Below, one piece after another: positions 35,554-50,288 of a stretch of 64,000 nucleotides of DNA. The first letter of the stretch is position 1; every line of letters begins with the position of its first letter. The DNA comes from Escherichia phage BF17. Where the stretch lies: sequence record MW822008.1; one strand, 5' to 3'. The notes under the pieces are model-generated. The model had not been told where the DNA came from and ran no database searches. It saw nothing but the letters and a program-made list of their open reading frames with translations. A program made the position numbers and the translations under genes.

Positions 35554-35664
35554 TTTGACTTTGGAACAACCATTTCATATGTGATATAATCTTAAGTGTC
35601 TGTTGAAATAAACAGCACATGAAGTATAAATATTAAAGTAATTTATCTCTTTAAGGAGTATGAA

Positions 35665-39098: not shown

Positions 39099-39131
39099 GG
39101 GTTGACTTCGGTCGGCCCTTTTTGCTATAAT
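39099..39131 (+). promoter_or_regulatory. terminator hairpin with embedded -35 (TTGACT) and downstream -10 TATAAT
   Basis: GGGTTGAC-TTCG-GTCGGCCC + TTTTT + GC + TATAAT. Confidence 0.65.
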
Positions 39132-39867: not shown

Positions 39868-40206
39868 ATGGAACAACATTTTGAATTAATTAATAAGGTA
39901 TCATTTTATGTAGTATCGTTAATTTGGGTGTATTACATGTTTTGTTACATTATTGCATTCTTCCGATACACGACCTTGTATCAACGCATATACTACGATG
40001 CACCAATTTCATTTTTGATGTTCAGTGCATGTACGTGGGGGATAATTGAAGCACTGGTATGTGGATATAGTACGGACGAATTAAATCTCGTATCGGTGTT
40101 GACATTACTAACAATTGCTACTATGATAGCTACAGTTCCGATATTTTTGCTCTTTAAACTGCTTCATCGCATCGATGAGTGGCGTAATAAAATCCCTGAA
40201 AAGTAA
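39868..40206 (+). CDS. small multi-pass membrane protein, paralog family (cluster A, copy 1)
   Basis: 112-aa; hydrophobic segments; motif F(R/K)Y-TL-x-R-YP and basic C-terminus WRNKIPEK. Confidence 0.65.
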   Translation: MEQHFELINKVSFYVVSLIWVYYMFCYIIAFFRYTTLYQRIYYDAPISFLMFSACTWGIIEALVCGYSTDELNLVSVLTLLTIATMIATVPIFLLFKLLHRIDEWRNKIPEK

Positions 40207-40215
40207 GGATTGATA

Positions 40216-40557
40216 ATGATTTTTTACACTAATGCGTTTGCTTATGCCGTTGCATCAATCTACATTGTGTACTTCTTATTTGGTGGAGTACTGTACTTCT
40301 TTAAGTACAAAACATTGTTTAACCGAATGTATCCAAATCACCCAATTGTAGTAGTACTTTTGATTATTTCTGTTGCTCACATCATTGTAGAAACAATAAT
40401 GGGTATTAGTGCAGTACATTACAGTCTAGGTACTATTGTAATTATTACTATGATCATCGCATACATTTTAGTAATGGGTTCTGGTTTATTTGGGAATGTA
40501 GCAATGAAAATGTATAATCGAATCAAAACATTACGTGATAATCTACCGGAGCGTTGA
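40216..40557 (+). CDS. small multi-pass membrane protein, paralog family (cluster A, copy 2)
   Basis: ORF track 40210 (TTG) trimmed to ATG 40216; C-terminus LRDNLPER. Confidence 0.65.
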   Translation: MIFYTNAFAYAVASIYIVYFLFGGVLYFFKYKTLFNRMYPNHPIVVVLLIISVAHIIVETIMGISAVHYSLGTIVIITMIIAYILVMGSGLFGNVAMKMYNRIKTLRDNLPER

Positions 40558-40558
40558 G

Positions 40559-40903
40559 ATGTATAATTTAAATTTAATATCATATATCATAACAACACTG
40601 TTTACTTTCTATGTCTTTGTTGGTATACTCCTACTGTACTTTAAATTTTATAAACTCTTTGACCGTTTATATCCATCATTGAAACATGAATTCTTATTGG
40701 TGATGTACATCTGTTTAACGTGTATGTCTACATTTTTCACTGTATTTGATGGTATCATCGGTATTAAAGCTGAAGATCCAAATGGGAGTACACTTGTTGC
40801 CTTTATTCTGGTAGGATTCTTCGGTACTTATATCACTTTCATTTCAACATGGTCTGTGGTTGATTATCTCATTAGATTACGAGATAAAATGCCAAATCGA
40901 TAG
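40559..40903 (+). CDS. small multi-pass membrane protein, paralog family (cluster A, copy 3)
   Basis: ORF track 40535 trimmed to ATG 40559; C-terminus LRDKMPNR. Confidence 0.65.
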   Translation: MYNLNLISYIITTLFTFYVFVGILLLYFKFYKLFDRLYPSLKHEFLLVMYICLTCMSTFFTVFDGIIGIKAEDPNGSTLVAFILVGFFGTYITFISTWSVVDYLIRLRDKMPNR

Positions 40904-40911
40904 GGGGTGCT

Positions 40912-41169
40912 ATGTTTGCATTGCGTAATAAAAATACAAAAGAGATTCTATGTATCTCAACAGTATGGGATTGTGCAGGAAGTGAAATGATTCTCGAAGA
41001 AGGTTCAGGTGATTGTGTTTATGTTGTACAGGATCGTCGCGAACTGGAATCATTACTTGACGAATTTAATGCTGGTGGAAATCCTAAAAGTACTCAATTC
41101 CCTGAGATCAGGAATCCAGCACCACCAGGCTCTTATGAAATTCTACAACTGTGGGAGATGGATAAGTAA
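40912..41169 (+). CDS. hypothetical protein
   Basis: 85-aa ORF. Confidence 0.55.
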   Translation: MFALRNKNTKEILCISTVWDCAGSEMILEEGSGDCVYVVQDRRELESLLDEFNAGGNPKSTQFPEIRNPAPPGSYEILQLWEMDK

Positions 41170-41429
41170 TGCGTCAAATGCACAAAGTAACCGAGCTAAA
41201 CAAGCGTCTGATTAAACAATCAATGTTTGAGGATAAAGAGTCTTACTATAACTTCAAACGTGCTGTAGAGGCTGCTATCCACATTCAGAAGCTTAAAGAT
41301 AGTGGATGTATTATTCTCGAAAATGGTTCTGACGTTGTTACTGATGACTTCAGTGTAGCGTTTGATGTTTCACCTGATGGTTCGCTATCAATGCCACGCT
41401 TAGGGACTGGTGACATGACTGTGTGGTAG
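41169..41429 (+). CDS. hypothetical protein
   Basis: 86-aa ORF. Confidence 0.55.
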   Translation: MRQMHKVTELNKRLIKQSMFEDKESYYNFKRAVEAAIHIQKLKDSGCIILENGSDVVTDDFSVAFDVSPDGSLSMPRLGTGDMTVW

Positions 41430-41549
41430 GTTTCACTATGGGGAATGTACCAGGCACGGTGTATGTAGATGATGCTGAGTTGAAAGAAAGCTTCAAAAAC
41501 TTATCGCATCTTGAACCACAATACGCACATGAAATGAATTTATTTTGAG

Positions 41550-41577
41550 TTGACAAACTCATTCAGTACTGTATAAT
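41550..41577 (+). promoter_or_regulatory. sigma70-like promoter TTGACA-N16-TATAAT
   Basis: ...TTCAGTACTGTATAATGTTTAT family. Confidence 0.6.
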
Positions 41578-41624
41578 GTTTATCAAGGGGATGAACTTCT
41601 CATCCCCACAATCGAGGAATTGTC

Positions 41625-42179
41625 ATGATTACTTTTAAGAAAACTGCTAACCACATCCATGAGATCTACATTAACGGTCACAAAGCTGGCCTTCTTCGTT
41701 TACTCGCCCATCATCCGAATATTACCGTATCTGATAATGAACCTAAAGATTGGCGTGTATTTTTCTTTGGAAAGTACAGTGATTTTCAAGTATCAAACCT
41801 GAAGAACATTCGTTCAGTATGCACGTTAACTGAAATTAAAGAAAAGTTAACCAAAGCATTGAAAACTAATCCAGATAGTGTTCTTCCACCTGATAACTTT
41901 GTAGAGAAAGGATATGCCTTAGCTCATTTCAAAGATGGTACTATTCAATCTATCAGTACTGAATATGAATATCAATGGACTGAGTACTTCACTTATGGAT
42001 CGCGTAATACATTGATGGCTTCACGTAGTAAATTGGAAGAAGTACTGACTCGTATGAATGAACGCGAGCGTCAATTTTATGACAAACCAGAAATGTGGAG
42101 TTCAACTTACATTGACCGTATTGACTATGTTATTATGACTCCAATCTTTGACACTGCTTACTATGATTCTTTGAAATAA
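41625..42179 (+). CDS. hypothetical protein
   Basis: 184-aa ORF, GAGGAA RBS. Confidence 0.65.
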   Translation: MITFKKTANHIHEIYINGHKAGLLRLLAHHPNITVSDNEPKDWRVFFFGKYSDFQVSNLKNIRSVCTLTEIKEKLTKALKTNPDSVLPPDNFVEKGYALAHFKDGTIQSISTEYEYQWTEYFTYGSRNTLMASRSKLEEVLTRMNERERQFYDKPEMWSSTYIDRIDYVIMTPIFDTAYYDSLK

Positions 42180-42395
42180 GGATAACTTATATGAAACTAC
42201 GTACTCGTAATCGACTGATGGATGCACTGTACCATGAACAGCTTTCACTGAATGAAGTGAAGCGTCAGTTAATGTACACATATCTGTTACCCGCTCGCAT
42301 TGCAAAACAACGTGCTAAAGAATTGCTGAAAGAAGCAATCGAGTACTGGGAATCTGATTCGTACTAATTGTCACGTTAATTAAGTGAGGCGATAA

Positions 42396-42647
42396 ATGAA
42401 AATTTTATTAGTTCTAATACTACTAATTGTTTTACCATTTACGTTAGTATCTCCTGAACTTGCATGGAATGTGTTTGTGTACTTACTATGTACTATTGTA
42501 GTAAATGGTATCTTGTTCTTAGTTCTATTCATAAATGGAATAGGACACGGTGGAGGATGGACCAGTACTGCTGATATTGTACATAAAACCACTATGTCTT
42601 TATTTGTAGTGTGGAATTTATTCTGGACTTGGTTTGTGTTCTTCTAA
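42396..42647 (+). CDS. small membrane protein
   Basis: 83-aa ORF, hydrophobic. Confidence 0.55.
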   Translation: MKILLVLILLIVLPFTLVSPELAWNVFVYLLCTIVVNGILFLVLFINGIGHGGGWTSTADIVHKTTMSLFVVWNLFWTWFVFF

Positions 42648-42657
42648 TTAAAAAAAT

Positions 42658-43029
42658 ATGAATATAGATTTGAAAGGTGCAACACGAACTGTCATACTCA
42701 TTGGGGAATATGCTATCAAGATTCCAACCTTTAAAAGTTGGAAGCTATTCTTAACAGGGATGATAGCTAACCTCAATGAACGTTCGTGGATGCAGTACTC
42801 CAAGCGTAGTAATAGTGGTATCTGCCCTACGTTGTGGTCATCATGTACTGGACTAGTAACTGTACAGAAACGTTGTAAGCCAGTGCAACATAGGGGTTTA
42901 TTTTGGCTGGAGTTGTGTGCTTTAGCATTGAATTCAGAGTTAAGTGCTGACTTCTTTTATTCAGATGCGAAGCCAGAAAACTTTGGGTATCTGTGTGGTA
43001 AGTTGGTTAAACTTGATTATGGAGATTAA
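42658..43029 (+). CDS. hypothetical protein with protein-kinase-like catalytic motifs
   Basis: AIK near N-terminus, then DAKPENFG (HRDLKPEN-like) and LDYGD (DFG-like) with kinase-like spacing; only 123 aa. Confidence 0.45.
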   Translation: MNIDLKGATRTVILIGEYAIKIPTFKSWKLFLTGMIANLNERSWMQYSKRSNSGICPTLWSSCTGLVTVQKRCKPVQHRGLFWLELCALALNSELSADFFYSDAKPENFGYLCGKLVKLDYGD

Positions 43030-43030
43030 T

Positions 43031-43303
43031 ATGTACGCACTGTATAATAAAGAAAAGAAACGATTTGCTAAGGTTGAAATTTCGATTGATACATTTGACA
43101 TGTTGGAGTACTGTATTGTAACGGACTTATATGCTAACTTGTATTACGTTCTTGATGACGTATCAGTACTGCAACGATTGCTTGAGAATTCCAAAAGTCA
43201 ATGCCAGGGCATCCATGATGGTTCATCTTATGAAACACCTGAGTGTTCCTACGGCTATCTGGACGGGTATGAGATTGTGAAGTTGGGTATTGTTGGATGC
43301 TGA
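43031..43303 (+). CDS. hypothetical protein
   Basis: ORF track 42944-43303 trimmed to ATG 43031 after GGAG. Confidence 0.5.
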   Translation: MYALYNKEKKRFAKVEISIDTFDMLEYCIVTDLYANLYYVLDDVSVLQRLLENSKSQCQGIHDGSSYETPECSYGYLDGYEIVKLGIVGC

Positions 43304-43307
43304 AACA

Positions 43308-43577
43308 ATGACCAATGATGAATTCATGGAATTTATAAAAAATATACAAAGTTCAAAAACTGGAGAAGAAAAAGAAACATATAAATTTAAAAGTTCAATA
43401 ATACTTATGAAAATGAAATTGATTTCTCATACTTTTAATGAGAAGTATGATTTTATCTTTGTGAACAGTGACTACAATGATTTAGTTTATAATATAAATG
43501 TTTTGTGGGAAGAAGAACTACAAAGCAAAATACATACAGTACGAAAACCATTAAAAAATCCTTTCAAAACGGGTTGA
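43308..43577 (+). CDS. hypothetical protein
   Basis: ORF track 43290-43577 trimmed to internal ATG. Confidence 0.45.
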   Translation: MTNDEFMEFIKNIQSSKTGEEKETYKFKSSIILMKMKLISHTFNEKYDFIFVNSDYNDLVYNINVLWEEELQSKIHTVRKPLKNPFKTG

Positions 43578-43603
43578 CTTCGGTCAGCCCTTTTTGCTAT
43601 AAT
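43571..43603 (+). promoter_or_regulatory. terminator hairpin with embedded -35 (TTGACT) and downstream -10 TATAAT
   Basis: GGGTTGACTTCGGTCAGCCCTTTTTGCTATAATCATTTCATCAA consensus copy. Confidence 0.7.
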
Positions 43604-43631
43604 CATTTCATCAAGACGAGAGGATGAATAC

Positions 43632-44147
43632 ATGACACGCATTAACTTAGTACACGTTAAAGAACTTGCTGACCAACATCTGATGGCTGAATATCGTGAA
43701 CTCCCACGTGTGTTTGGTGCTGTACAAAAACATGTTCAAGCACGTAAGCGAGTCCGTGATTTCAAAATTAACAGTACTTACCTGTTAGGTTCAGGTCATG
43801 TAACATTCTTCTACAACAAGTTATTGTACTTACAGAAGCGTCATATTGATATTGTTAACGAATGTTTGCGTCGTGGTATGAAGATTCAAAACACTGAAGT
43901 AAACGACATTAGCGGATTCCCTGCTGAGTTTTGTAATGACTACGTACCATCGGAGTCAGAGATTAAAATGTCTCGTGAGCGTTTGATTGAGAAGATACAG
44001 ATGAAGCCTATGTGGTATAAATTTACTGACGTTGAACGCCCACAGTACGTTAAAGATATGCAGGACGTAAGTGGTGATATAGAATCTAGTACTGATATGT
44101 TCGACGAAATTGAAGAACAAATCAAAGATGAAATGAATAATTATTAA
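43632..44147 (+). CDS. denV: pyrimidine dimer DNA glycosylase / endonuclease V
   Basis: N-terminus [31 protein letters not shown]...RVRDFKI...[10 protein letters not shown] closely matches T4 endonuclease V as I recall it, including Thr2 and Glu23. Confidence 0.9.
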
Positions 44148-44153
44148 AGGAAA

Positions 44154-44186
44154 GGGTTGACTTCGGTCAGCCCTTTTTGCTATAAT
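44154..44186 (+). promoter_or_regulatory. terminator hairpin with embedded -35 and downstream -10
   Basis: Consensus copy of the GGGTTGACTTCGGTCAGCCC cassette. Confidence 0.7.
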
Positions 44187-44212
44187 CATTTTATCAACTT
44201 AAGAGGTAACAC

Positions 44213-44455
44213 ATGAAACTATCTTTTATACGATTAGCAGAATTCTTCGGTACTGATATCATTACTTTACAACAAATTGCAGACAATACTTCATTAAGTA
44301 CACAAGAAGTACTTGACTTAGATGTAATTCAGTGCGATAATACGTCCATCGATTACAAAGAAGGTCTTGTCGAAAAAGATAAGATTCAGGCTAAGATTAA
44401 TGGTGCTGGACGGGTTCAGTACTGGAAAGGAGTTTTAAGTAATGTTAATTTATGA
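44213..44455 (+). CDS. hypothetical protein
   Basis: 80-aa ORF, AGAGG RBS. Confidence 0.55.
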   Translation: MKLSFIRLAEFFGTDIITLQQIADNTSLSTQEVLDLDVIQCDNTSIDYKEGLVEKDKIQAKINGAGRVQYWKGVLSNVNL

Positions 44456-45857
44456 CGAGCTTGGTGTTGGATACCATTTTACCGATGTTGTGCAATTGGA
44501 GGGTGAATATGTACGCGACGCACGAGAAGACACACCACTTGATAAAATAAAAACACTTAATTCACTAATAATAAAAAATATAATACACATTGAATTATTA
44601 CAAGGATTTGTCGTTGATGGCATAGATGAGTATAATAAAAAAAGATATTCTAAAAAATTTCGACAACCAAAATGTAATTTGAAAATAGCATTTTGGTATG
44701 ATGGTTTATTGTTCATTCAAGGTTATAAACAATTTCTTTCCAACTTAAGTTCAGGAAACTATTGTCCGGGTGAAAAAATATATAATTTAGAAAAAACCAT
44801 TTTATCTGCAAAAAATAAACTATCCGGTGGGTGTAGTATAATAACTGGGAATGGTGAGTGGCTGGGGAGAACAAATACTAAACTTTATGCACTCTGCACG
44901 AAAACCAATAAACCTTGGGAATTCACCATCGGTACACAATATTCTCAGAATTGTCCTGACTGTAAAAAAAGCAAAAAAACTAATAAAGACTTAGATGTGT
45001 TTTTTGAACAACAATGTATAAAATTAAATGCAAAATTTATTGGTATTTTCATGTATAATGGTGTAGATAATAGTATTGTCAAATCGGTATGTAATTGTTG
45101 TGGTAATGAACGTATGGATTATGGAATAACGTTTCGTGCGGGCAGTAGAAAAAGTTTATGCCCACTTGAATCAAGCAGAGTAGAAAAAATAAAAAAATCC
45201 CAATACTTACAAAATGAAGTTTTGGAAGAAAAAATAAAAACTGCAATGAAAATCCATAATATAAGATTTGATGATTCTAACAAATTTGAACCTGAGAAAT
45301 ACGCAAATGTCAAAACTACTATTATAAATTATATTGATTCGAGTGGAACCCCTGGTAGTACATGTCTTTCAAATTTGATTTATAATACAGACAAACGAAG
45401 TATTGGTTCAAAAAACATGACTAATGGTGGTGAGTTGTATACAAATTCATTTGGAAATATGTACAAACTAGGTCACACGACAAAAACAAGTCGTAGGATA
45501 TACGAACAAAATTTATCCTTCTCCAAAAAAAATATATTATGGAAAAATGAACTAATTTTAAAGTTTCCTGGTGAAAATGGGTATGGTCGAGCGATTTATT
45601 TTGAAAAAACAATTTTAGATTATGTAAATAATATAATTGATTGGGTGAAAAACGTTCAAAAAACACCAATATTCGCCCGTGGTTGTGTTGACGAAGGTGA
45701 TGGACATACTGAAACATTTTTAAAGATATATGAATCATATTTTAGATATAAATTGAATGAATTGTACTTGACATATAAAGATGAATGGGATATAATTATT
45801 TTCAAAGATGAAAAGAATTTTATTTCTAATACAAGAGATACTAAAAATGACCAATGA
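44442..45857 (+). CDS. hypothetical Cys-rich protein in AT-rich island
   Basis: 471-aa ORF; visibly lower GC than flanks; CPDC / CNCC motifs. Confidence 0.65.
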   Translation: MLIYDELGVGYHFTDVVQLEGEYVRDAREDTPLDKIKTLNSLIIKNIIHIELLQGFVVDGIDEYNKKRYSKKFRQPKCNLKIAFWYDGLLFIQGYKQFLSNLSSGNYCPGEKIYNLEKTILSAKNKLSGGCSIITGNGEWLGRTNTKLYALCTKTNKPWEFTIGTQYSQNCPDCKKSKKTNKDLDVFFEQQCIKLNAKFIGIFMYNGVDNSIVKSVCNCCGNERMDYGITFRAGSRKSLCPLESSRVEKIKKSQYLQNEVLEEKIKTAMKIHNIRFDDSNKFEPEKYANVKTTIINYIDSSGTPGSTCLSNLIYNTDKRSIGSKNMTNGGELYTNSFGNMYKLGHTTKTSRRIYEQNLSFSKKNILWKNELILKFPGENGYGRAIYFEKTILDYVNNIIDWVKNVQKTPIFARGCVDEGDGHTETFLKIYESYFRYKLNELYLTYKDEWDIIIFKDEKNFISNTRDTKNDQ

Positions 45858-46905
45858 ACAAATTATTGATATTTTAAACAAACTTGGATATGATGAAATA
45901 ACAATTAATGTGGATAAATGTACATATGATGTATTTCATCCTAAAAGAAAAATAATTTATACTGGTATGGATTTAAATAAGATCAACTTTAATACAAAAG
46001 CAATAAAATTTCCACCGTTGGATTATAACACAATAAAATTAAGTTGTGAGAATATTTTCAAAGATAGTGAATGTAAATTTTGTTATTTGGAATATAATGA
46101 AAACAAACCAAATGACACAAAAGTTTTTTATTGTGCACCTAAAAGAAAAAAACCAACCAGTATATATTATAGACATTTGGTGAGTGGTGGTATTCGTATT
46201 AATGTTGAATGGGATATTGAAGACATCTATGATAATGTCTTGATTAAAATAAAAGATATGGATGGTTTTGATATTGATCATGTTGAATATAATGAAAAAG
46301 AAACTTCAAAAACTATAATTCATTTTAAACACCCAAATAGATTATTAACAGTTAAAAATGAATTTAGATATATAATGAGAGATAATTGGTCATTAAAAGA
46401 ACCGCAGATTTCATTAGACGAAATAAATGAGATTGGTAAGAAATTTTCAAAAGAACATCCAAAATATAAGTATCTTGGATGTAAAAGATTCAAAGGTTCA
46501 AAATCGATATTATCGTTTGTTAAAATCGATAATGGAAAAATTTGGAATCCATCATATGAATCAATAGTTTATAGTAATATTAACAGTGATGTTGGTGGAT
46601 ATATTGCAAATGATATAAAAAATTTATATATATTTAAAACTGATTCATTTGTTGGAACATTTATATGCAATGAAACAAAATTTAACTTTCATAAAAATGA
46701 AAGGGAGTTTTGGTTGGATGATGGGGAGATTGAGATAATTGGACAATTCAATGAACGATATTCTTTTTTAAAAGGTATTGTAGATACAGTTAATAGTGAA
46801 ATAGAAATAGATCATGATTTAGATATTGTTGGATATACGTGTATTAGGAAAATACATAATATTGAATATATACAACAACGTTGTTATGATTTATTCAATT
46901 TATAA
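45847..46905 (+). CDS. hypothetical protein in AT-rich island
   Basis: ORF track 45808-46905 trimmed to ATG 45847; AT-rich, K/N/I-rich. Confidence 0.6.
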   Translation: MTNEQIIDILNKLGYDEITINVDKCTYDVFHPKRKIIYTGMDLNKINFNTKAIKFPPLDYNTIKLSCENIFKDSECKFCYLEYNENKPNDTKVFYCAPKRKKPTSIYYRHLVSGGIRINVEWDIEDIYDNVLIKIKDMDGFDIDHVEYNEKETSKTIIHFKHPNRLLTVKNEFRYIMRDNWSLKEPQISLDEINEIGKKFSKEHPKYKYLGCKRFKGSKSILSFVKIDNGKIWNPSYESIVYSNINSDVGGYIANDIKNLYIFKTDSFVGTFICNETKFNFHKNEREFWLDDGEIEIIGQFNERYSFLKGIVDTVNSEIEIDHDLDIVGYTCIRKIHNIEYIQQRCYDLFNL

Positions 46906-46913
46906 CAAAAAAA

Positions 46914-46946
46914 GGGTTGACTTCGGTCAGCCCTTTTTGCTATAAT
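46914..46946 (+). promoter_or_regulatory. terminator hairpin with embedded -35 and downstream -10
   Basis: Consensus copy of the cassette. Confidence 0.7.
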
Positions 46947-46974
46947 TATTTCATCAACTGATGAGGATAACGAA

Positions 46975-47745
46975 ATGACCAGAGAAGCACGTAGCATTCA
47001 AATTCAGAAAAACTTCAACTCCATGATGGTTGCTCTTGAGTGTTTGCTCGACGATAACAGTACTGTAAAAAGTATGGTTGTCAGCGGTGCACCTGGTGTT
47101 GGTAAGACTTACACCCTGTCACAACGCCTCCAGAAAGCTCATGACGCAGCAGAATGGAACGTAGCCACTATCAGTGGTAAAATGACTACTCTTGCTCTGT
47201 ACGAAGTTCTGTACAAGAATCGTCATAGCACCAACGTATTAGTACTGGATGATATGGACAGCATCTTTGATTCAGAAGACGGTATGAACCTGCTCAAAGC
47301 AGTACTGGACAGCGGTAAACGTACTGTGTCTTACATGACTAGCTCTAAGTACTTAACTACCAACGGTATCCCTAACAGCTTTGATTTTAACGGTCGTATC
47401 GTATTCATTACTAACAAAGATTTAGCACTGAATGCTAAAGCTAAAACCAAAATGTCTGCTCACTATGCTGCTCTTATGTCTCGCTCTGTGTATGTTGACT
47501 TACAGATCCAGACTAAAAGCGATATCATGATTCACATTGAAAACGTAATGAACAAGACCAATATCCTGTCAACTAAAGGTGTTAATAGTAATGGTAGCAA
47601 AGCAATCCTGAATTGGATGCTGAAACATGAAGATGCACTTCGTGCTCCTTCACTGCGTATGCCTCTGTTGATTTCAGCAGTATACAACAACAACCCGTAT
47701 GATTGGGAAGAGCAGTGCGAAAACTTGTTCCTTGAGAAAATTTAA
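46975..47745 (+). CDS. P-loop NTPase (AAA-like ATPase)
   Basis: Walker A GAPGVGKT and Walker B-like VLVLDD; 256 aa. Confidence 0.75.
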   Translation: MTREARSIQIQKNFNSMMVALECLLDDNSTVKSMVVSGAPGVGKTYTLSQRLQKAHDAAEWNVATISGKMTTLALYEVLYKNRHSTNVLVLDDMDSIFDSEDGMNLLKAVLDSGKRTVSYMTSSKYLTTNGIPNSFDFNGRIVFITNKDLALNAKAKTKMSAHYAALMSRSVYVDLQIQTKSDIMIHIENVMNKTNILSTKGVNSNGSKAILNWMLKHEDALRAPSLRMPLLISAVYNNNPYDWEEQCENLFLEKI

Positions 47746-47754
47746 TTACATGTA

Positions 47755-47786
47755 TTGACAGTACTACCATAGTGTAGTACTATAAC
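47755..47786 (+). promoter_or_regulatory. promoter-like TTGACA-N17-TACTATAAC
   Basis: Upstream of the 7-gene membrane-protein operon. Confidence 0.45.
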
Positions 47787-47812
47787 TTAATATTCACCAC
47801 CGGAGATACGAT

Positions 47813-48151
47813 ATGCTTGAGTTTTTTAATTCAGATACAATGCTTAGTATTACTTTGATTTATCTGTTTGGTTTTTTCTTTTATCATGCACTAGTTGTAG
47901 TACTATGGTATTTTAAAAAGAAAATCGTTTTCAAACTGTATCCTGATGGAAACATTTCACTACTTCTTTTCACTATTATCCAAGGTATGTTTGCAATTGT
48001 TGGTCTTATCGCACACTTAATTTATTGTGCTAATCCACAGTTGAACTCAATATCACAATATATTGTATTCCTTGGATTACTAATTTGGGTGCTGATATAC
48101 TTGTTTAATCTCATCATCAATGGTAGAGCAAAAATTCGTGGGGACTTCTAA
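47813..48151 (+). CDS. small multi-pass membrane protein, paralog family (cluster B, copy 1)
   Basis: 112-aa; hydrophobic; basic C-terminus RAKIRGDF. Confidence 0.65.
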   Translation: MLEFFNSDTMLSITLIYLFGFFFYHALVVVLWYFKKKIVFKLYPDGNISLLLFTIIQGMFAIVGLIAHLIYCANPQLNSISQYIVFLGLLIWVLIYLFNLIINGRAKIRGDF

Positions 48152-48498
48152 TGTTTGAATCTTATCTTGAGTTTTTAAAGAGTAGTTCTGTTGCACATTC
48201 AATTGCAGGGATTATTCTAACAGGTTATGTAACATTTTGGGTGGTTATGTTTCTAGGATGGTATTTTAAACGACAATTCTATAAGCGTAATGGTGAAGAT
48301 TTTATGAATTCTGTTATTAATCAATCGTTGTTTGCATCAACATTGATAGCATGTATTGTAGCAACACTCACAGGAAAGGTACTGCCAGCATTCTCCGCAG
48401 TTTACGGTACATTGGGTATGATATGTGTAGTTTTTTACTTGACCATTAAACTTTGTTGTGTTATGATTGACCTTCGAAACAAGATACCGGAGGAATGA
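48151..48498 (+). CDS. small multi-pass membrane protein (cluster B, copy 2)
   Basis: C-terminus LRNKIPEE; overlapping start/stop. Confidence 0.65.
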   Translation: MFESYLEFLKSSSVAHSIAGIILTGYVTFWVVMFLGWYFKRQFYKRNGEDFMNSVINQSLFASTLIACIVATLTGKVLPAFSAVYGTLGMICVVFYLTIKLCCVMIDLRNKIPEE

Positions 48499-48833
48499 TG
48501 GAATATTTTTTACACTTACTGCCGTGGTATATGAAAGTTAGTACTATGTACTATATTCTTAGTGCTGGATTCTACTTTCTGATGTGGTTCTTCAAACGAC
48601 CAATTTCAGTATTCATCTCTGATAACATGCTGCAATTAAAATTACACGCATGGTTTTTTATGGCGATGTTTATGCCTATTATTCACTACTCAATGATTAG
48701 TAGAGGGTTCCGTTCCAATGGTGAACCAATTATATTAGTATTCTATTGGGGTTCAACTATTGCATATGTAAGTTTGTTGTTGATCCCAGCCGTTCATAAA
48801 TTACGTGCTAAAGTTCCTGATGCGAGGTACTAA
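48495..48833 (+). CDS. small multi-pass membrane protein (cluster B, copy 3)
   Basis: C-terminus LRAKVPDARY; ATGA overlap. Confidence 0.65.
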   Translation: MMEYFLHLLPWYMKVSTMYYILSAGFYFLMWFFKRPISVFISDNMLQLKLHAWFFMAMFMPIIHYSMISRGFRSNGEPIILVFYWGSTIAYVSLLLIPAVHKLRAKVPDARY

Positions 48834-49147
48834 TGGATATCGTAACATTGATTTACACGCTTTATTCATTCTATTTTATTATGTGTTGGGTTGGATTTTT
48901 ATTTGTATTGAAGATGTTTGATTATGTTGAAAAACAGATAAAAGAATTTTGTATTCCTTTTATTGGGTCAACCATAATTAGTATTACTTGTTTGTATTAT
49001 TTGGTATGTGATCCACCTGTTAATACAGCAATGATTGACTTCATGTTATTACCAACAACAGTTATTTTTTTATGTAGTCTGATGCCACCGATTAGTCGTG
49101 GGCTAACCGAATTTAGACGCAATCAAAAGCGTAAACGAGGGATGTGA
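48833..49147 (+). CDS. small multi-pass membrane protein (cluster B, copy 4)
   Basis: C-terminus RRNQKRKRGM. Confidence 0.65.
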   Translation: MDIVTLIYTLYSFYFIMCWVGFLFVLKMFDYVEKQIKEFCIPFIGSTIISITCLYYLVCDPPVNTAMIDFMLLPTTVIFLCSLMPPISRGLTEFRRNQKRKRGM

Positions 49148-49515
49148 TGGAAATTGCACTTATTATATTAACTGCTATGTTGTTTATTAGTACAATTGTT
49201 ATTATTGGCAAGTTCTTCTGTGTATCCTTCTTGGAAACCGTATACGATGAAATTGCTGATGATTATGAATTACATGCGGGATTTTTTACTACGTATTGGA
49301 TTAGTTTATTACTACTTATCACTGTATGGATTTTACATATATTCAAATGGGGTATGGTAGATGGTGATCCAGTACTGGCAATTATCTGTGTAGTGTTTGG
49401 TCTACTCGGTGGTGCTGTCCATAATCTGATGGTAATTTGGCAAACCGTACAATATGTATTAGTTCCACATTTTCAGAGAATGCACCAAAGCATCAAATAC
49501 CGCAAACGAGGATAA
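49144..49515 (+). CDS. small multi-pass membrane protein (cluster B, copy 5)
   Basis: C-terminus SIKYRKRG. Confidence 0.65.
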   Translation: MMEIALIILTAMLFISTIVIIGKFFCVSFLETVYDEIADDYELHAGFFTTYWISLLLLITVWILHIFKWGMVDGDPVLAIICVVFGLLGGAVHNLMVIWQTVQYVLVPHFQRMHQSIKYRKRG

Positions 49516-49516
49516 C

Positions 49517-49879
49517 ATGAATAATATTGAATTATCTTTTATTGGTCAATTAATGGTAATGGCGTATACATTTATCTTCTCACTGAATGCATTCGTGTGC
49601 ATTGGGAAGTACTTCCATAAGCGACCATTATCAAATATATATGATGTAATACAAAGGAGATATAGTCCAGCATATACTGTGTTGAGTACAGCATTCAATT
49701 TTGGTTTTATTCTAATGCTGGTTGCATTATTAACATCGAGTTCGAATTTTATAACATTTGGTATTATGGTATGTTCACTAACACTGTGTGTGGTTATTCT
49801 CTGTGCATCAGTTGAGTTGATGGCGTGGATGTATAATAAGATTTCCGAAATCCATGAGCGTTTAGGTAAGAGGAACTAA
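49517..49879 (+). CDS. small multi-pass membrane protein (cluster B, copy 6)
   Basis: C-terminus HERLGKRN. Confidence 0.65.
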   Translation: MNNIELSFIGQLMVMAYTFIFSLNAFVCIGKYFHKRPLSNIYDVIQRRYSPAYTVLSTAFNFGFILMLVALLTSSSNFITFGIMVCSLTLCVVILCASVELMAWMYNKISEIHERLGKRN

Positions 49880-49880
49880 A

Positions 49881-50252
49881 ATGAGTTATCGTGAAATATT
49901 TTCGATCATTACTATTATTGTGTTTAGTTTAGGTTCTTTGATTTGGTTATTGTATTACTTCTGTGTAACCCCAGTATATAATATGCTAAATTCAGTTCGC
50001 TCTGATGTTGGTATTGTTTCTTTTATTATCTTCATGGCATATTATATGCTAAGTATCACAGGTTTGGTTTTGGTTGTTATCTTTGACCTTGGACCGAATC
50101 AAGATGGTATGGAGATGTGGGAATTGATAACGATGTTTGCATGTATGATACCTGCATTTGGTGTATGTGCTGGTGTATTTTATGGGTTGTGTAAAGGTGT
50201 AAACTACTTAAAAAATATCCACAATACTATTCGTAAAAAACGTATGTTGTAA
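49881..50252 (+). CDS. small multi-pass membrane protein (cluster B, copy 7)
   Basis: C-terminus IRKKRML. Confidence 0.65.
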   Translation: MSYREIFSIITIIVFSLGSLIWLLYYFCVTPVYNMLNSVRSDVGIVSFIIFMAYYMLSITGLVLVVIFDLGPNQDGMEMWELITMFACMIPAFGVCAGVFYGLCKGVNYLKNIHNTIRKKRML

Positions 50253-50258
50253 TAAAAA

Positions 50259-50283
50259 ATCCAGTACTATAATAGTACTGGAT
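50259..50283. terminator. bidirectional terminator between convergent blocks
   Basis: ATCCAGTACT-ATAAT-AGTACTGGAT palindrome with A/T runs on both sides. Confidence 0.65.
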
Positions 50284-50288
50284 TAATT

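Follow-up and report, generated by a model that had tools for sequence, protein, structure and literature searches.

Background

Small early inner-membrane proteins of phages, both virulent and temperate, where their function is known, are most often superinfection-exclusion factors, as with T4 Imm, P22 SieA and HK97 gp15; T4 Imm is encoded by a single gene and has two transmembrane (TM) helices. Uncharacterised paralogue families are known to abound in jumbo phages. Jumbo phages of the RaK2-like group are under development for therapy against E. coli, Klebsiella and Salmonella, and more than 80% of their genes are unannotated. Here we analyse ten small membrane-protein genes lying in two tandem clusters in a 64,000-nucleotide stretch of Escherichia phage BF17 (record MW822008.1), hereafter called the window. 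This 64-kb stretch matches Asteriusvirus genomes, that is, the 121Q/RaK2-like jumbo coliphages of about 350 to 385 kb; its closest DNA matches are CMSTMSU, WPEC3, Turkey3 and fEgEco12 (97 to 99% identity across part of the query). By profile comparison, the ten genes are one very divergent family encoding proteins of 104 to 123 aa, for which we tentatively propose an early function at the host membrane. No account of the family was found in the literature on Asteriusvirus, phAPEC6, fEgEco12, UE-S1, RaK2 and CBB, nor in a jumbo-phage comparative review.

Gene organization

A preliminary description of the window had placed ten open reading frames (ORFs) in two tandem clusters. All ten were found at the positions given there, all on the + strand; they are named m1 to m3 (cluster A) and m4 to m10 (cluster B).

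39868-40206, + strand: m1, 112 aa; three TM helices; motif FRYTTLYQRIYY; tail WRNKIPEK; phrog_19285 (4e-48)
40216-40557, + strand: m2, 113 aa; three TM helices; motif FKYKTLFNRMYP; tail LRDNLPER; phrog_19285 (2e-49)
40559-40903, + strand: m3, 114 aa; three TM helices; motif FKFYKLFDRLYP; tail LRDKMPNR
47813-48151, + strand: m4, 112 aa; three TM helices; first gene of cluster B; motif WYFKKK; phrog_19454 (1e-46)
48151-48498, + strand: m5, 115 aa; three TM helices; motif WYFKR; tail LRNKIPEE; phrog_19046 (3e-50)
48498-48833, + strand: m6, 111 aa (112 aa from 48495); motif WFFKRP; tail LRAKVPDARY; phrog_27396 (1e-58)
48833-49147, + strand: m7, 104 aa; three TM helices; tail RRNQKRKRGM; phrog_33258 (2e-50); weakest family link
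49147-49515, + strand: m8, 122 aa (GTG at 49144 possible); motif GKFFCV; tail KYRKRG; phrog_26405 (1e-60)
49517-49879, + strand: m9, 120 aa; motif GKYFHKRP; tail HERLGKRN; no strong PHROG match
49881-50252, + strand: m10, 123 aa; motif YYFCV; tail HNTIRKKRML; last gene of cluster B; phrog_27618 (6e-47)

Four start codons are tentatively corrected with the help of database orthologues and the 121Q annotation. The m2 gene probably starts at ATG 40216 rather than at TTG 40210 of the mechanical ORF (orthologue P0025, 121Q gene 208), and m3 probably at ATG 40559 rather than at GTG 40535 (orthologues P0030 and P0031, 121Q gene 209); the probable starts of m6 and m8 are ATG 48498 and ATG 49147. With these starts, the stop and start codons of cluster B overlap by 1 nt at m4/m5, m5/m6, m6/m7 and m7/m8, and are separated by 1-nt gaps at m8/m9 and m9/m10. 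In cluster A, the m2 start lies 9 nt past the m1 stop, and the m3 start 1 nt past the m2 stop. Cluster B is thus packed as reported earlier.

Every start is preceded by a Shine-Dalgarno sequence of the GGAG/GAGG type, located within the 3' end of the preceding gene. At the gene junctions, among them 48480-48497, 49130-49146, 49500-49516 and 49865-49880, the codons of the upstream C-terminal tail are at the same time the downstream Shine-Dalgarno (Pro-Glu as CCGGAG, Arg-Gly as CGAGG, Lys-Arg as AAGAGG). The two clusters are probably tightly packed operons with translational coupling.

Evidence for a single family

Composition-corrected pairwise BLASTP among the ten proteins was significant for m1-m2 (1e-9) and m2-m3 (1e-7) only, and marginal for m4-m5 (0.03). 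As BLASTP was insufficient for most pairs, orthologue profiles were used instead, one per member, with orthologues taken from 121Q, JNE01, Turkey5, A4, SD-1_S14 and phAPEC6. Comparison of these profiles with hhalign joined nine members in one network, in which m5 had the most connections. Links were found within cluster A (m1-m2 2e-13, m1-m3 1e-9), within cluster B (m5-m6 1e-8, m6-m8 3e-5, m8-m10 2e-5, m8-m9 6e-5), and between m1 and cluster B (m1-m5 1e-5, m1-m4 5e-5, m1-m10 1e-4); most alignments spanned 75 to 113 columns. The 121 forward-versus-reversed control comparisons gave no value below 7e-3, and none of the family profiles was matched by an unrelated 83-aa membrane protein of this region (42396-42647).

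Hidden Markov models (HMMs) built with one subfamily left out at a time gave 26 to 43 bits for the window members of eight subfamilies (for example, 32 bits for m4 and 26 bits for m9), and up to 51 bits for other orthologues of those eight groups. Composition-matched shuffles reached maxima of 7 to 17 bits, and reversed sequences 8 bits. The m6 and m7 proteins of the window, at 12.9 and 12.4 bits, were marginal alone; their orthologue groups reached 32 bits (m6 group, with a K64-1 protein) and 29.3 bits (5e-8; m7 group, with phage A4). Hence m7, marginal by itself while its A4 orthologue scores, joins the family by transitivity and is its weakest link. An iterative HMM seeded with the ten proteins was run on 774 ORFs of at least 60 aa, from the window and nine related loci. 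It converged on 80 proteins, all on the + strand and all in the two clusters; just the ten seeds were retained within the window.

It could be argued that there is no true family, and that unrelated hydrophobic ORFs look alike through TM composition alone. The non-significance of most BLASTP pairs, and the scores of only about 12 to 13 bits for the window m6 and m7, go in this direction. We consider this very unlikely, however: true pairs lie at 1e-4 to 1e-13, where reversed, shuffled and unrelated-membrane-protein controls fail; the full-length alignments are co-linear, with an invariant Phe and an Arg/His column; the iterative HMM takes cluster genes alone out of the 774 ORFs; and an independent metagenomic array, on contig L010, provides six genes at 26 to 52 bits. 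The earlier claim of one family beyond hydrophobic composition is thus upheld, for m6 and m7 by way of their orthologues.

Matches to PHROGs at 1e-46 to 1e-60 were obtained for m1, m2, m4 to m8 and m10; m3 matched phrog_19285 weakly (4e-4), and the best value for m9, 0.046, was not significant. PHROGs divides these genes into seven separate families (19285, 19454, 19046, 27396, 33258, 26405 and 27618), with no function assigned. The m5 protein also matches phrog_19454 and phrog_27396, and weak full-length PHROG cross-hits mirror the hhalign pattern. One further family, phrog_16874 ('membrane protein', moron/host-takeover category), is touched by m5 (2e-5) and m7 (0.011). What is new here, on the basis of these profile comparisons, is that orphan PHROG families, seven or more in number, are brought together in one superfamily having a common topology and signature.

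Predicted topology and conserved signature

A 17-residue hydrophobicity window detected three segments in nine members and two in m6, for which the alignment indicates three. Summed over nine members, Lys and Arg residues number 4 in the N-terminus, 27 in loop 1, 2 in loop 2 and 41 in the C-terminal tail. By the positive-inside rule, this distribution predicts an N-out/C-in orientation with very little periplasmic exposure: the short acidic N-terminus and loop 2 would be periplasmic, and the basic loop 1 and basic C-terminal helix cytoplasmic. An AlphaFold2 model of m5 of moderate quality (42-sequence alignment, pLDDT 72.7, pTM 0.51) has three long and two short helices (2-11, 13-38, 42-53, 55-76 and 81-111), with TM3 running on into the basic tail helix. 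The preliminary description had counted three to four hydrophobic segments; three, not four, are retained.

Two juxtamembrane motifs had been proposed for the whole family. They apply to six members, F[RK][YF]xxLxxRxYP being present in m1 to m3 and W[YF]FK[RK] in m4 to m6, and only variants occur in m7 to m10 (FLFVLK, KFFCV, KYFHK and YYFCV, respectively). A more general signature emerged from 44 non-redundant sequences. At the cytoplasmic end of TM1, an aromatic residue is followed by Phe (98%) and then by a basic residue (61%); a Tyr is found about 8 residues after this motif (72%); and the tail carries hydrophobic-x-x-hydrophobic-[R/H/K]-x-[K/R]-hydrophobic, with its basic column at 100%. 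The TM1-end Phe is invariant in the 42-sequence alignment A2, and the full-length alignments are co-linear with a common Phe column and a common Arg/His tail column. Among divergent orthologues, identity was lowest in TM3 (27%), followed by TM2 (36%) and loop 2 (38%), and was 44 to 56% in the N-terminus, TM1, loop 1 and tail, the last three lying at 44 to 47%.

The basic C-terminal motif noted earlier is present, but its apparent conservation is inflated by the embedded Shine-Dalgarno sequences, and is therefore partly a nucleotide constraint imposed by the next gene. As the motif is also found in m3 and m10, neither of which is followed by a family gene, it is not purely a nucleotide signal.

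Distribution and age of the array

A word-indexed search of 5.8 billion proteins returned 24 proteins, and 24 were likewise returned when 1.84 billion representatives were scanned exhaustively with HMMER. Truncated fragments apart, the matches are full-length and about 100 to 140 aa long. Those checked belong to RaK2-like phages; neither search gave cellular homologues beyond phage-like contigs labelled E. coli. Distant members are found in Klebsiella Alcyoneusvirus (RaK2, K64-1, Muenster) and Klebsiella phage fENko-Kae01, and also in the Salmonella phages Munch, 7t3, SE_PL and PHA46. A search of IMG/VR for related loci, made with P0040 as query, found none.

The gene immediately upstream of cluster B provides the reference point for comparing loci.

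46975-47745, + strand: P-loop/AAA NTPase (Pfam AAA families), which in every lineage examined is the upstream neighbour of the array; given as context only

Synteny of this NTPase with the array was observed in 121Q, JNE01, Turkey5, A4, K64-1, Munch and metagenomic contig L010. In K64-1, the same NTPase is followed by two short ORFs (gp384, gp385) and then by gp386 to gp393, identified by subfamily HMMs as, in order, m5-, m5-, m4-, m6-, m7-, m8- and m10-like genes, plus one extra member (77 bits for the m6-like, 65 for the m7-like, 43 for the m8-like and 111 for the m10-like gene, gp392). This order nearly matches that of the window. In Munch, the interval bounded by the NTPase and convergent RCC1-like genes holds about four array genes. 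Contig L010 shows the NTPase, then eight small genes, then RCC1-like genes that are again convergent; of the eight, six score 26 to 52 bits, and cluster-A-type and cluster-B-type members occur within this one array. The L010 array had been left out of the iterative HMM build, one of its genes coming from an earlier A1 profile search. The orthologous order downstream of the NTPase in K64-1, together with the arrays in L010 and Munch, argues that the paralogues predate the split of the genera. An expansion in this phage, as first suggested, is therefore not what we find: orthologues of m4, m5, m6, m7, m8 and m10 are ordered alike in K64-1.

Local changes were also seen. An m4-type gene is duplicated in 121Q and an m7-type gene in JNE01 and Turkey5; cluster A is a single gene in A4 and K64-1, and K64-1 is without a separate m9-type gene. 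The arrays of K64-1, Munch and the metagenomic contig also have embedded in them a well conserved 42-aa soluble peptide (MKPEQWIIDDMRxMR...YLDLLxWYVKVLNSKE), which occurs neither in the window nor in the Asteriusvirus loci.

L009, 1149-1277: 42-aa peptide, K64-1 gp385
L008, 12689-12817: 42-aa peptide, Munch 532
L010, 1817-1945: 42-aa peptide, metagenomic contig

Selection and allele exchange

The dN/dS ratio was 0.10 to 0.50 throughout the family genes. We conclude that the ten ORFs are true genes and that purifying selection acts on them. In all 44 phage records with a match to m7, at least 80% of its length was matched, and the match was in two pieces only in 121Q and CMSTMSU. Dispensability of the family, considered because of these two split genes, was rejected, since the match is in one piece in the other 42 of the 44 records.

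Compared with A4, the NTPase, a DenV-type glycosylase and neighbouring genes are 94 to 99% identical, with dS values of 0.05 to 0.5, whereas the ten family genes are only 25 to 65% identical, with dS of about 1.4 or more, three cases being too saturated to compute. Similarity to A4 drops abruptly exactly at the junction of the NTPase and the array, which are separated by a promoter in Asteriusvirus. Compared with 121Q, dS within the array ranges from 0.14 (m6) to 1.46 (m10). This roughly ten-fold spread suggests that divergent alleles have been exchanged by recombination, in some cases one gene at a time. Taken together, these sequence comparisons indicate that the array is ancient and lineage-restricted, and that it is hypervariable, with allele exchange among close relatives.

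The retention of the paralogues may be read in another way: they could be distinct subunits of an early hetero-oligomeric inner-membrane complex (a ring, channel or scaffold), in which the conserved cytoplasmic motifs would serve for subunit packing or for docking a soluble phage partner. The paralogues have kept their identity and order from a time before the genera separated, m7 is present in all 44 records that match it, the 1-nt overlaps and embedded Shine-Dalgarno sequences point to coupled, roughly stoichiometric synthesis, and entire arrays differ together between phage lineages. Copy number varies, however (two m4-type genes in 121Q, two m7-type in JNE01, two m5-type in K64-1, and about four genes overall in Munch), and gene-by-gene exchange, with dS of 0.14 to 1.46 relative to 121Q, is hard to square with co-adapted subunits. 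On balance we regard such a complex, and the subunit-packing or docking role of its motifs, as rather unlikely.

Expression context and virion status

Near-consensus sigma-70 sites, defined as matches at 11 or more of 12 positions, numbered 36 on the + strand (482 to 46946) and 1 on the - strand, compared with 2.4 per strand in shuffled sequences. Most of the + strand sites lie just upstream of gene starts. Many of them are then followed by a similar stretch such as CATTTCATCAAC. Judging from these sites, the whole + strand arm looks like an early region driven by host RNA polymerase. In the CBB phage, RpoD-like promoter regions rich in short ORFs have been associated with early host takeover, and an ATAAATA motif with late genes (PMC5259590). 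The elements closest to the two clusters are as follows.

39102-39131, + strand: near-consensus sigma-70 promoter-like site; TTGACT, 18 nt, TATAAT
47755-47783, + strand: sigma-70-type promoter-like site before m4; TTGACA, 17 nt, TACTAT, with GGAG 8 nt before the ATG
47760-47781: inverted repeat AGTACTAC-CATAGT-GTAGTACT in the spacer of the m4 promoter
50258-50284, both strands scored: terminator-like hairpin with a 12-bp stem, between the convergent m10 and first RCC1-like gene

The site before m4 is retained in 121Q, JNE01, Turkey5 and phAPEC6, even though identity in the genes that follow it is only 38 to 82%; the inverted repeat is conserved in the same four phages, and might serve as an operator or form a hairpin that terminates the transcript of the upstream NTPase. 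No strong promoter-like site lies directly ahead of m1; for the transcription unit that includes cluster A, the closest strong candidate promoter is the site at 39102-39131. The CCAGTAC...GTACTGG stem family to which the 50258-50284 hairpin belongs also precedes most RCC1-like genes. The upstream element of those genes, TTAAATATAGTATAATGAATAAAGGAGG, which follows the hairpin, differs from the promoters of the family genes and is not carried by the clusters. The T4-late-like sequence TATAAATA was not found near either cluster, its only two copies being at 35625 and 36867. In the part of the phAPEC6 virion proteome giving entries gp010 to gp035c (PMC7247149), the family orthologues gp012c-017c and gp028c-029c are not listed. 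We infer that the family is transcribed early by host sigma-70 RNA polymerase, and that its products are non-structural proteins.

This context bears on whether some or all members might be the holins, pinholins or antiholins still missing from RaK2-like phages, and might set the time at which a signal-anchored endolysin is released. In their predicted architecture they are equal to class I holins. Neither a T holin nor an RI antiholin is reported in the RaK2 paper (PMC3622015), and the CBB paper describes an endolysin with an N-terminal TM domain while the word holin is absent from it (PMC5259590); a canonical holin is described in neither. In 121Q, the endolysin orthologue gp532 (L012 4192-5118) also has an N-terminal TM segment, and no gene for a multi-TM protein flanks it; only 43-aa and 61-aa single-TM ORFs are found nearby, neither of which matches the family. 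Several observations nevertheless make this idea improbable. The clusters have a sigma-70 early-type context, with no TATAAATA nearby and no RCC1-like upstream motif. The 121Q endolysin gene lies at 254 kb and the clusters at 106 to 116 kb, that is, about 140 kb apart. Ten or eleven retained paralogues are unlike known lysis cassettes, and no holin family was matched in Pfam (E ≤ 1), PHROGs (E ≤ 0.1) or NCBIfam. Finally, in the fEgEco12 paper a holin is reported among the annotated lysis genes, the family genes being annotated there as hypothetical proteins. The sigma-70 promoters, the non-detection in the available part of the phAPEC6 virion data, the allele replacement and the distance of about 140 kb together argue against a classical late lysis cassette.

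A combined possibility is a hetero-oligomeric inner-membrane machine, either a multi-subunit channel or pore acting as the missing holin/pinholin system for the signal-anchored endolysin of the RaK2-like phages, or an early membrane-remodelling complex without counterpart in model phages. We consider it quite unlikely.

Possible functions

The reading that we favour, to which we give a probability of about one in three, is early superinfection exclusion or protection at the level of the membrane, as suggested by analogy with other small early phage membrane proteins. A set of early inner-membrane proteins would shield the cytoplasmic membrane of the infected cell against further attack. In its favoured form this would be superinfection exclusion, in which competing phages would be kept from introducing their genomes or from damaging the membrane. 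Each paralogue may add its own specificity through the fast-changing TM2-loop2-TM3 hairpin, while the conserved cytoplasmic signature (the TM1-end Phe motif, the Tyr and the tail motif) may have a common role in insertion, assembly or partner binding. The preliminary description had listed exclusion, immunity, lysis timing, a channel and anti-defence as possible functions. The sigma-70 promoters, the absence from the phAPEC6 virion entries considered above and the allele replacement make the evidence lean to exclusion or anti-defence.

Anti-defence leads to a second scheme, in which the proteins would be host-directed early effectors, each paralogue binding and neutralising a different host inner-membrane protein, such as a membrane-anchored effector of abortive infection or defence, a transporter, or a component of division or stress sensing. 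The family would then resemble the immune-evasion membrane-protein arrays of large eukaryotic DNA viruses. The early-type promoters, the variable TM2-TM3 next to a conserved core, the replacement of alleles between close relatives infecting different strains, and the limitation of the family to one phage lineage infecting Enterobacteriaceae are all consistent with this. However, Pfam, NCBIfam and PADLOC scans gave sub-threshold noise only, with no similarity to known anti-defence proteins, and no host target can be inferred. Moreover, the paralogue set is kept across phages of Escherichia, Klebsiella and Salmonella, whereas strain-specific targets predict more gain and loss. Host-directed effectors, and any of the targets imagined for them, therefore seem doubtful to us.

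A number of points weigh against superinfection exclusion or protection as well. The family showed no homology to any exclusion protein: no immunity or exclusion family, Imm included, was matched in Pfam, PHROGs or NCBIfam, and the PHROGs matches are to families of unknown function only. A profile search of PDB sequences gave a best E-value of 0.03, which is not credible, and fold searches gave generic helix bundles only. The periplasmic exposure is tiny and the best-conserved residues are cytoplasmic, which suits a cytoplasmic partner at least equally; likewise, the strict retention of paralogues, their order and their tight coupling equally suit subunits of one complex. Neighbouring small ORFs that do not encode membrane proteins are variable too, so that the variability of the family may partly reflect the region. 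Early timing is deduced from promoter-like sequences alone, no transcriptome for this phage group having been found in the literature, and virion mass spectrometry easily misses small hydrophobic proteins.

The family can now be described by its predicted topology, its sequence signature, its probable expression class and its evolutionary pattern. If exclusion or anti-defence is its function, the design of phage cocktails would be affected, since phages with different alleles may exclude each other, and so would host range. If instead the family serves as the missing holin system or forms a hetero-oligomeric channel, the mechanism, be it of lysis or at the membrane, would be a new one. The proteins are small, cloneable and open to direct test.

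Neighbouring genes

The G+C content of the window is about 34%. Its genes are oriented on the + strand as far as 50252 and on the - strand past that position. Homologues of the NTPase at 46975-47745, with 37 to 41% identity, occur in more than 1,300 phage records, T4-like phages included, in which they are often mislabelled thioredoxin. The other neighbours of interest are listed here.

42396-42647, + strand: 83-aa membrane protein
44442-45857, + strand: large ORF, 471 aa
45808-46905, + strand: large ORF, 365 aa
50289-63711, - strand: array of about 11 RCC1-like paralogues of about 370 to 400 aa each, convergent with m10

The 83-aa protein is 96 to 100% identical in 121Q, phAPEC6, JNE01, Turkey5 and A4, a conservation that contrasts with the family genes, which are 25 to 65% identical to those of JNE01, Turkey5 and A4. 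For the two large ORFs, no counterpart was found in the 121Q, JNE01, Turkey5, A4, SD-1_S14 and phAPEC6 loci, and Pfam gave nothing. Some related records have HNH or homing endonucleases annotated in the 44442-46905 interval, and on this ground the two ORFs are probably a mobile insertion. Ahead of most RCC1-like genes lie a hairpin (GCCAGTACTTGATACTGGC with a T-run) and the conserved motif TTAAATATAGTATAATGAATAAAGGAGG; according to the available part of the phAPEC6 proteome (PMC7247149), their orthologues are virion proteins.

Comparison with known systems

The PHROG families 19285, 19454, 19046, 27396, 33258, 26405 and 27618, treated as separate in that resource, are considered here as one superfamily. 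With another tandem, lineage-restricted and divergent paralogue array of a RaK2-like genome, the family shares its arrangement; it differs in being integral to the membrane, in looking early rather than virion-associated, and in keeping its paralogue order across genera. To class I holins of the lambda S105 type, the likeness is one of architecture only: about 105 to 123 aa, three TM helices, a predicted N-out/C-in orientation and a charged, basic C-terminus. The family departs from them by its early-type promoter context, the absence of an adjacent endolysin, its ten paralogues and the lack of a holin-family match. T4 Imm, P22 SieA and HK97 gp15 resemble what is predicted for the family, being small, non-structural inner-membrane proteins with early promoters that vary among relatives. 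No sequence or profile similarity to them was seen in Pfam, PHROGs or NCBIfam, and the family is set apart by its three TM helices and by its 10 to 11 retained paralogues, arranged in two operons.

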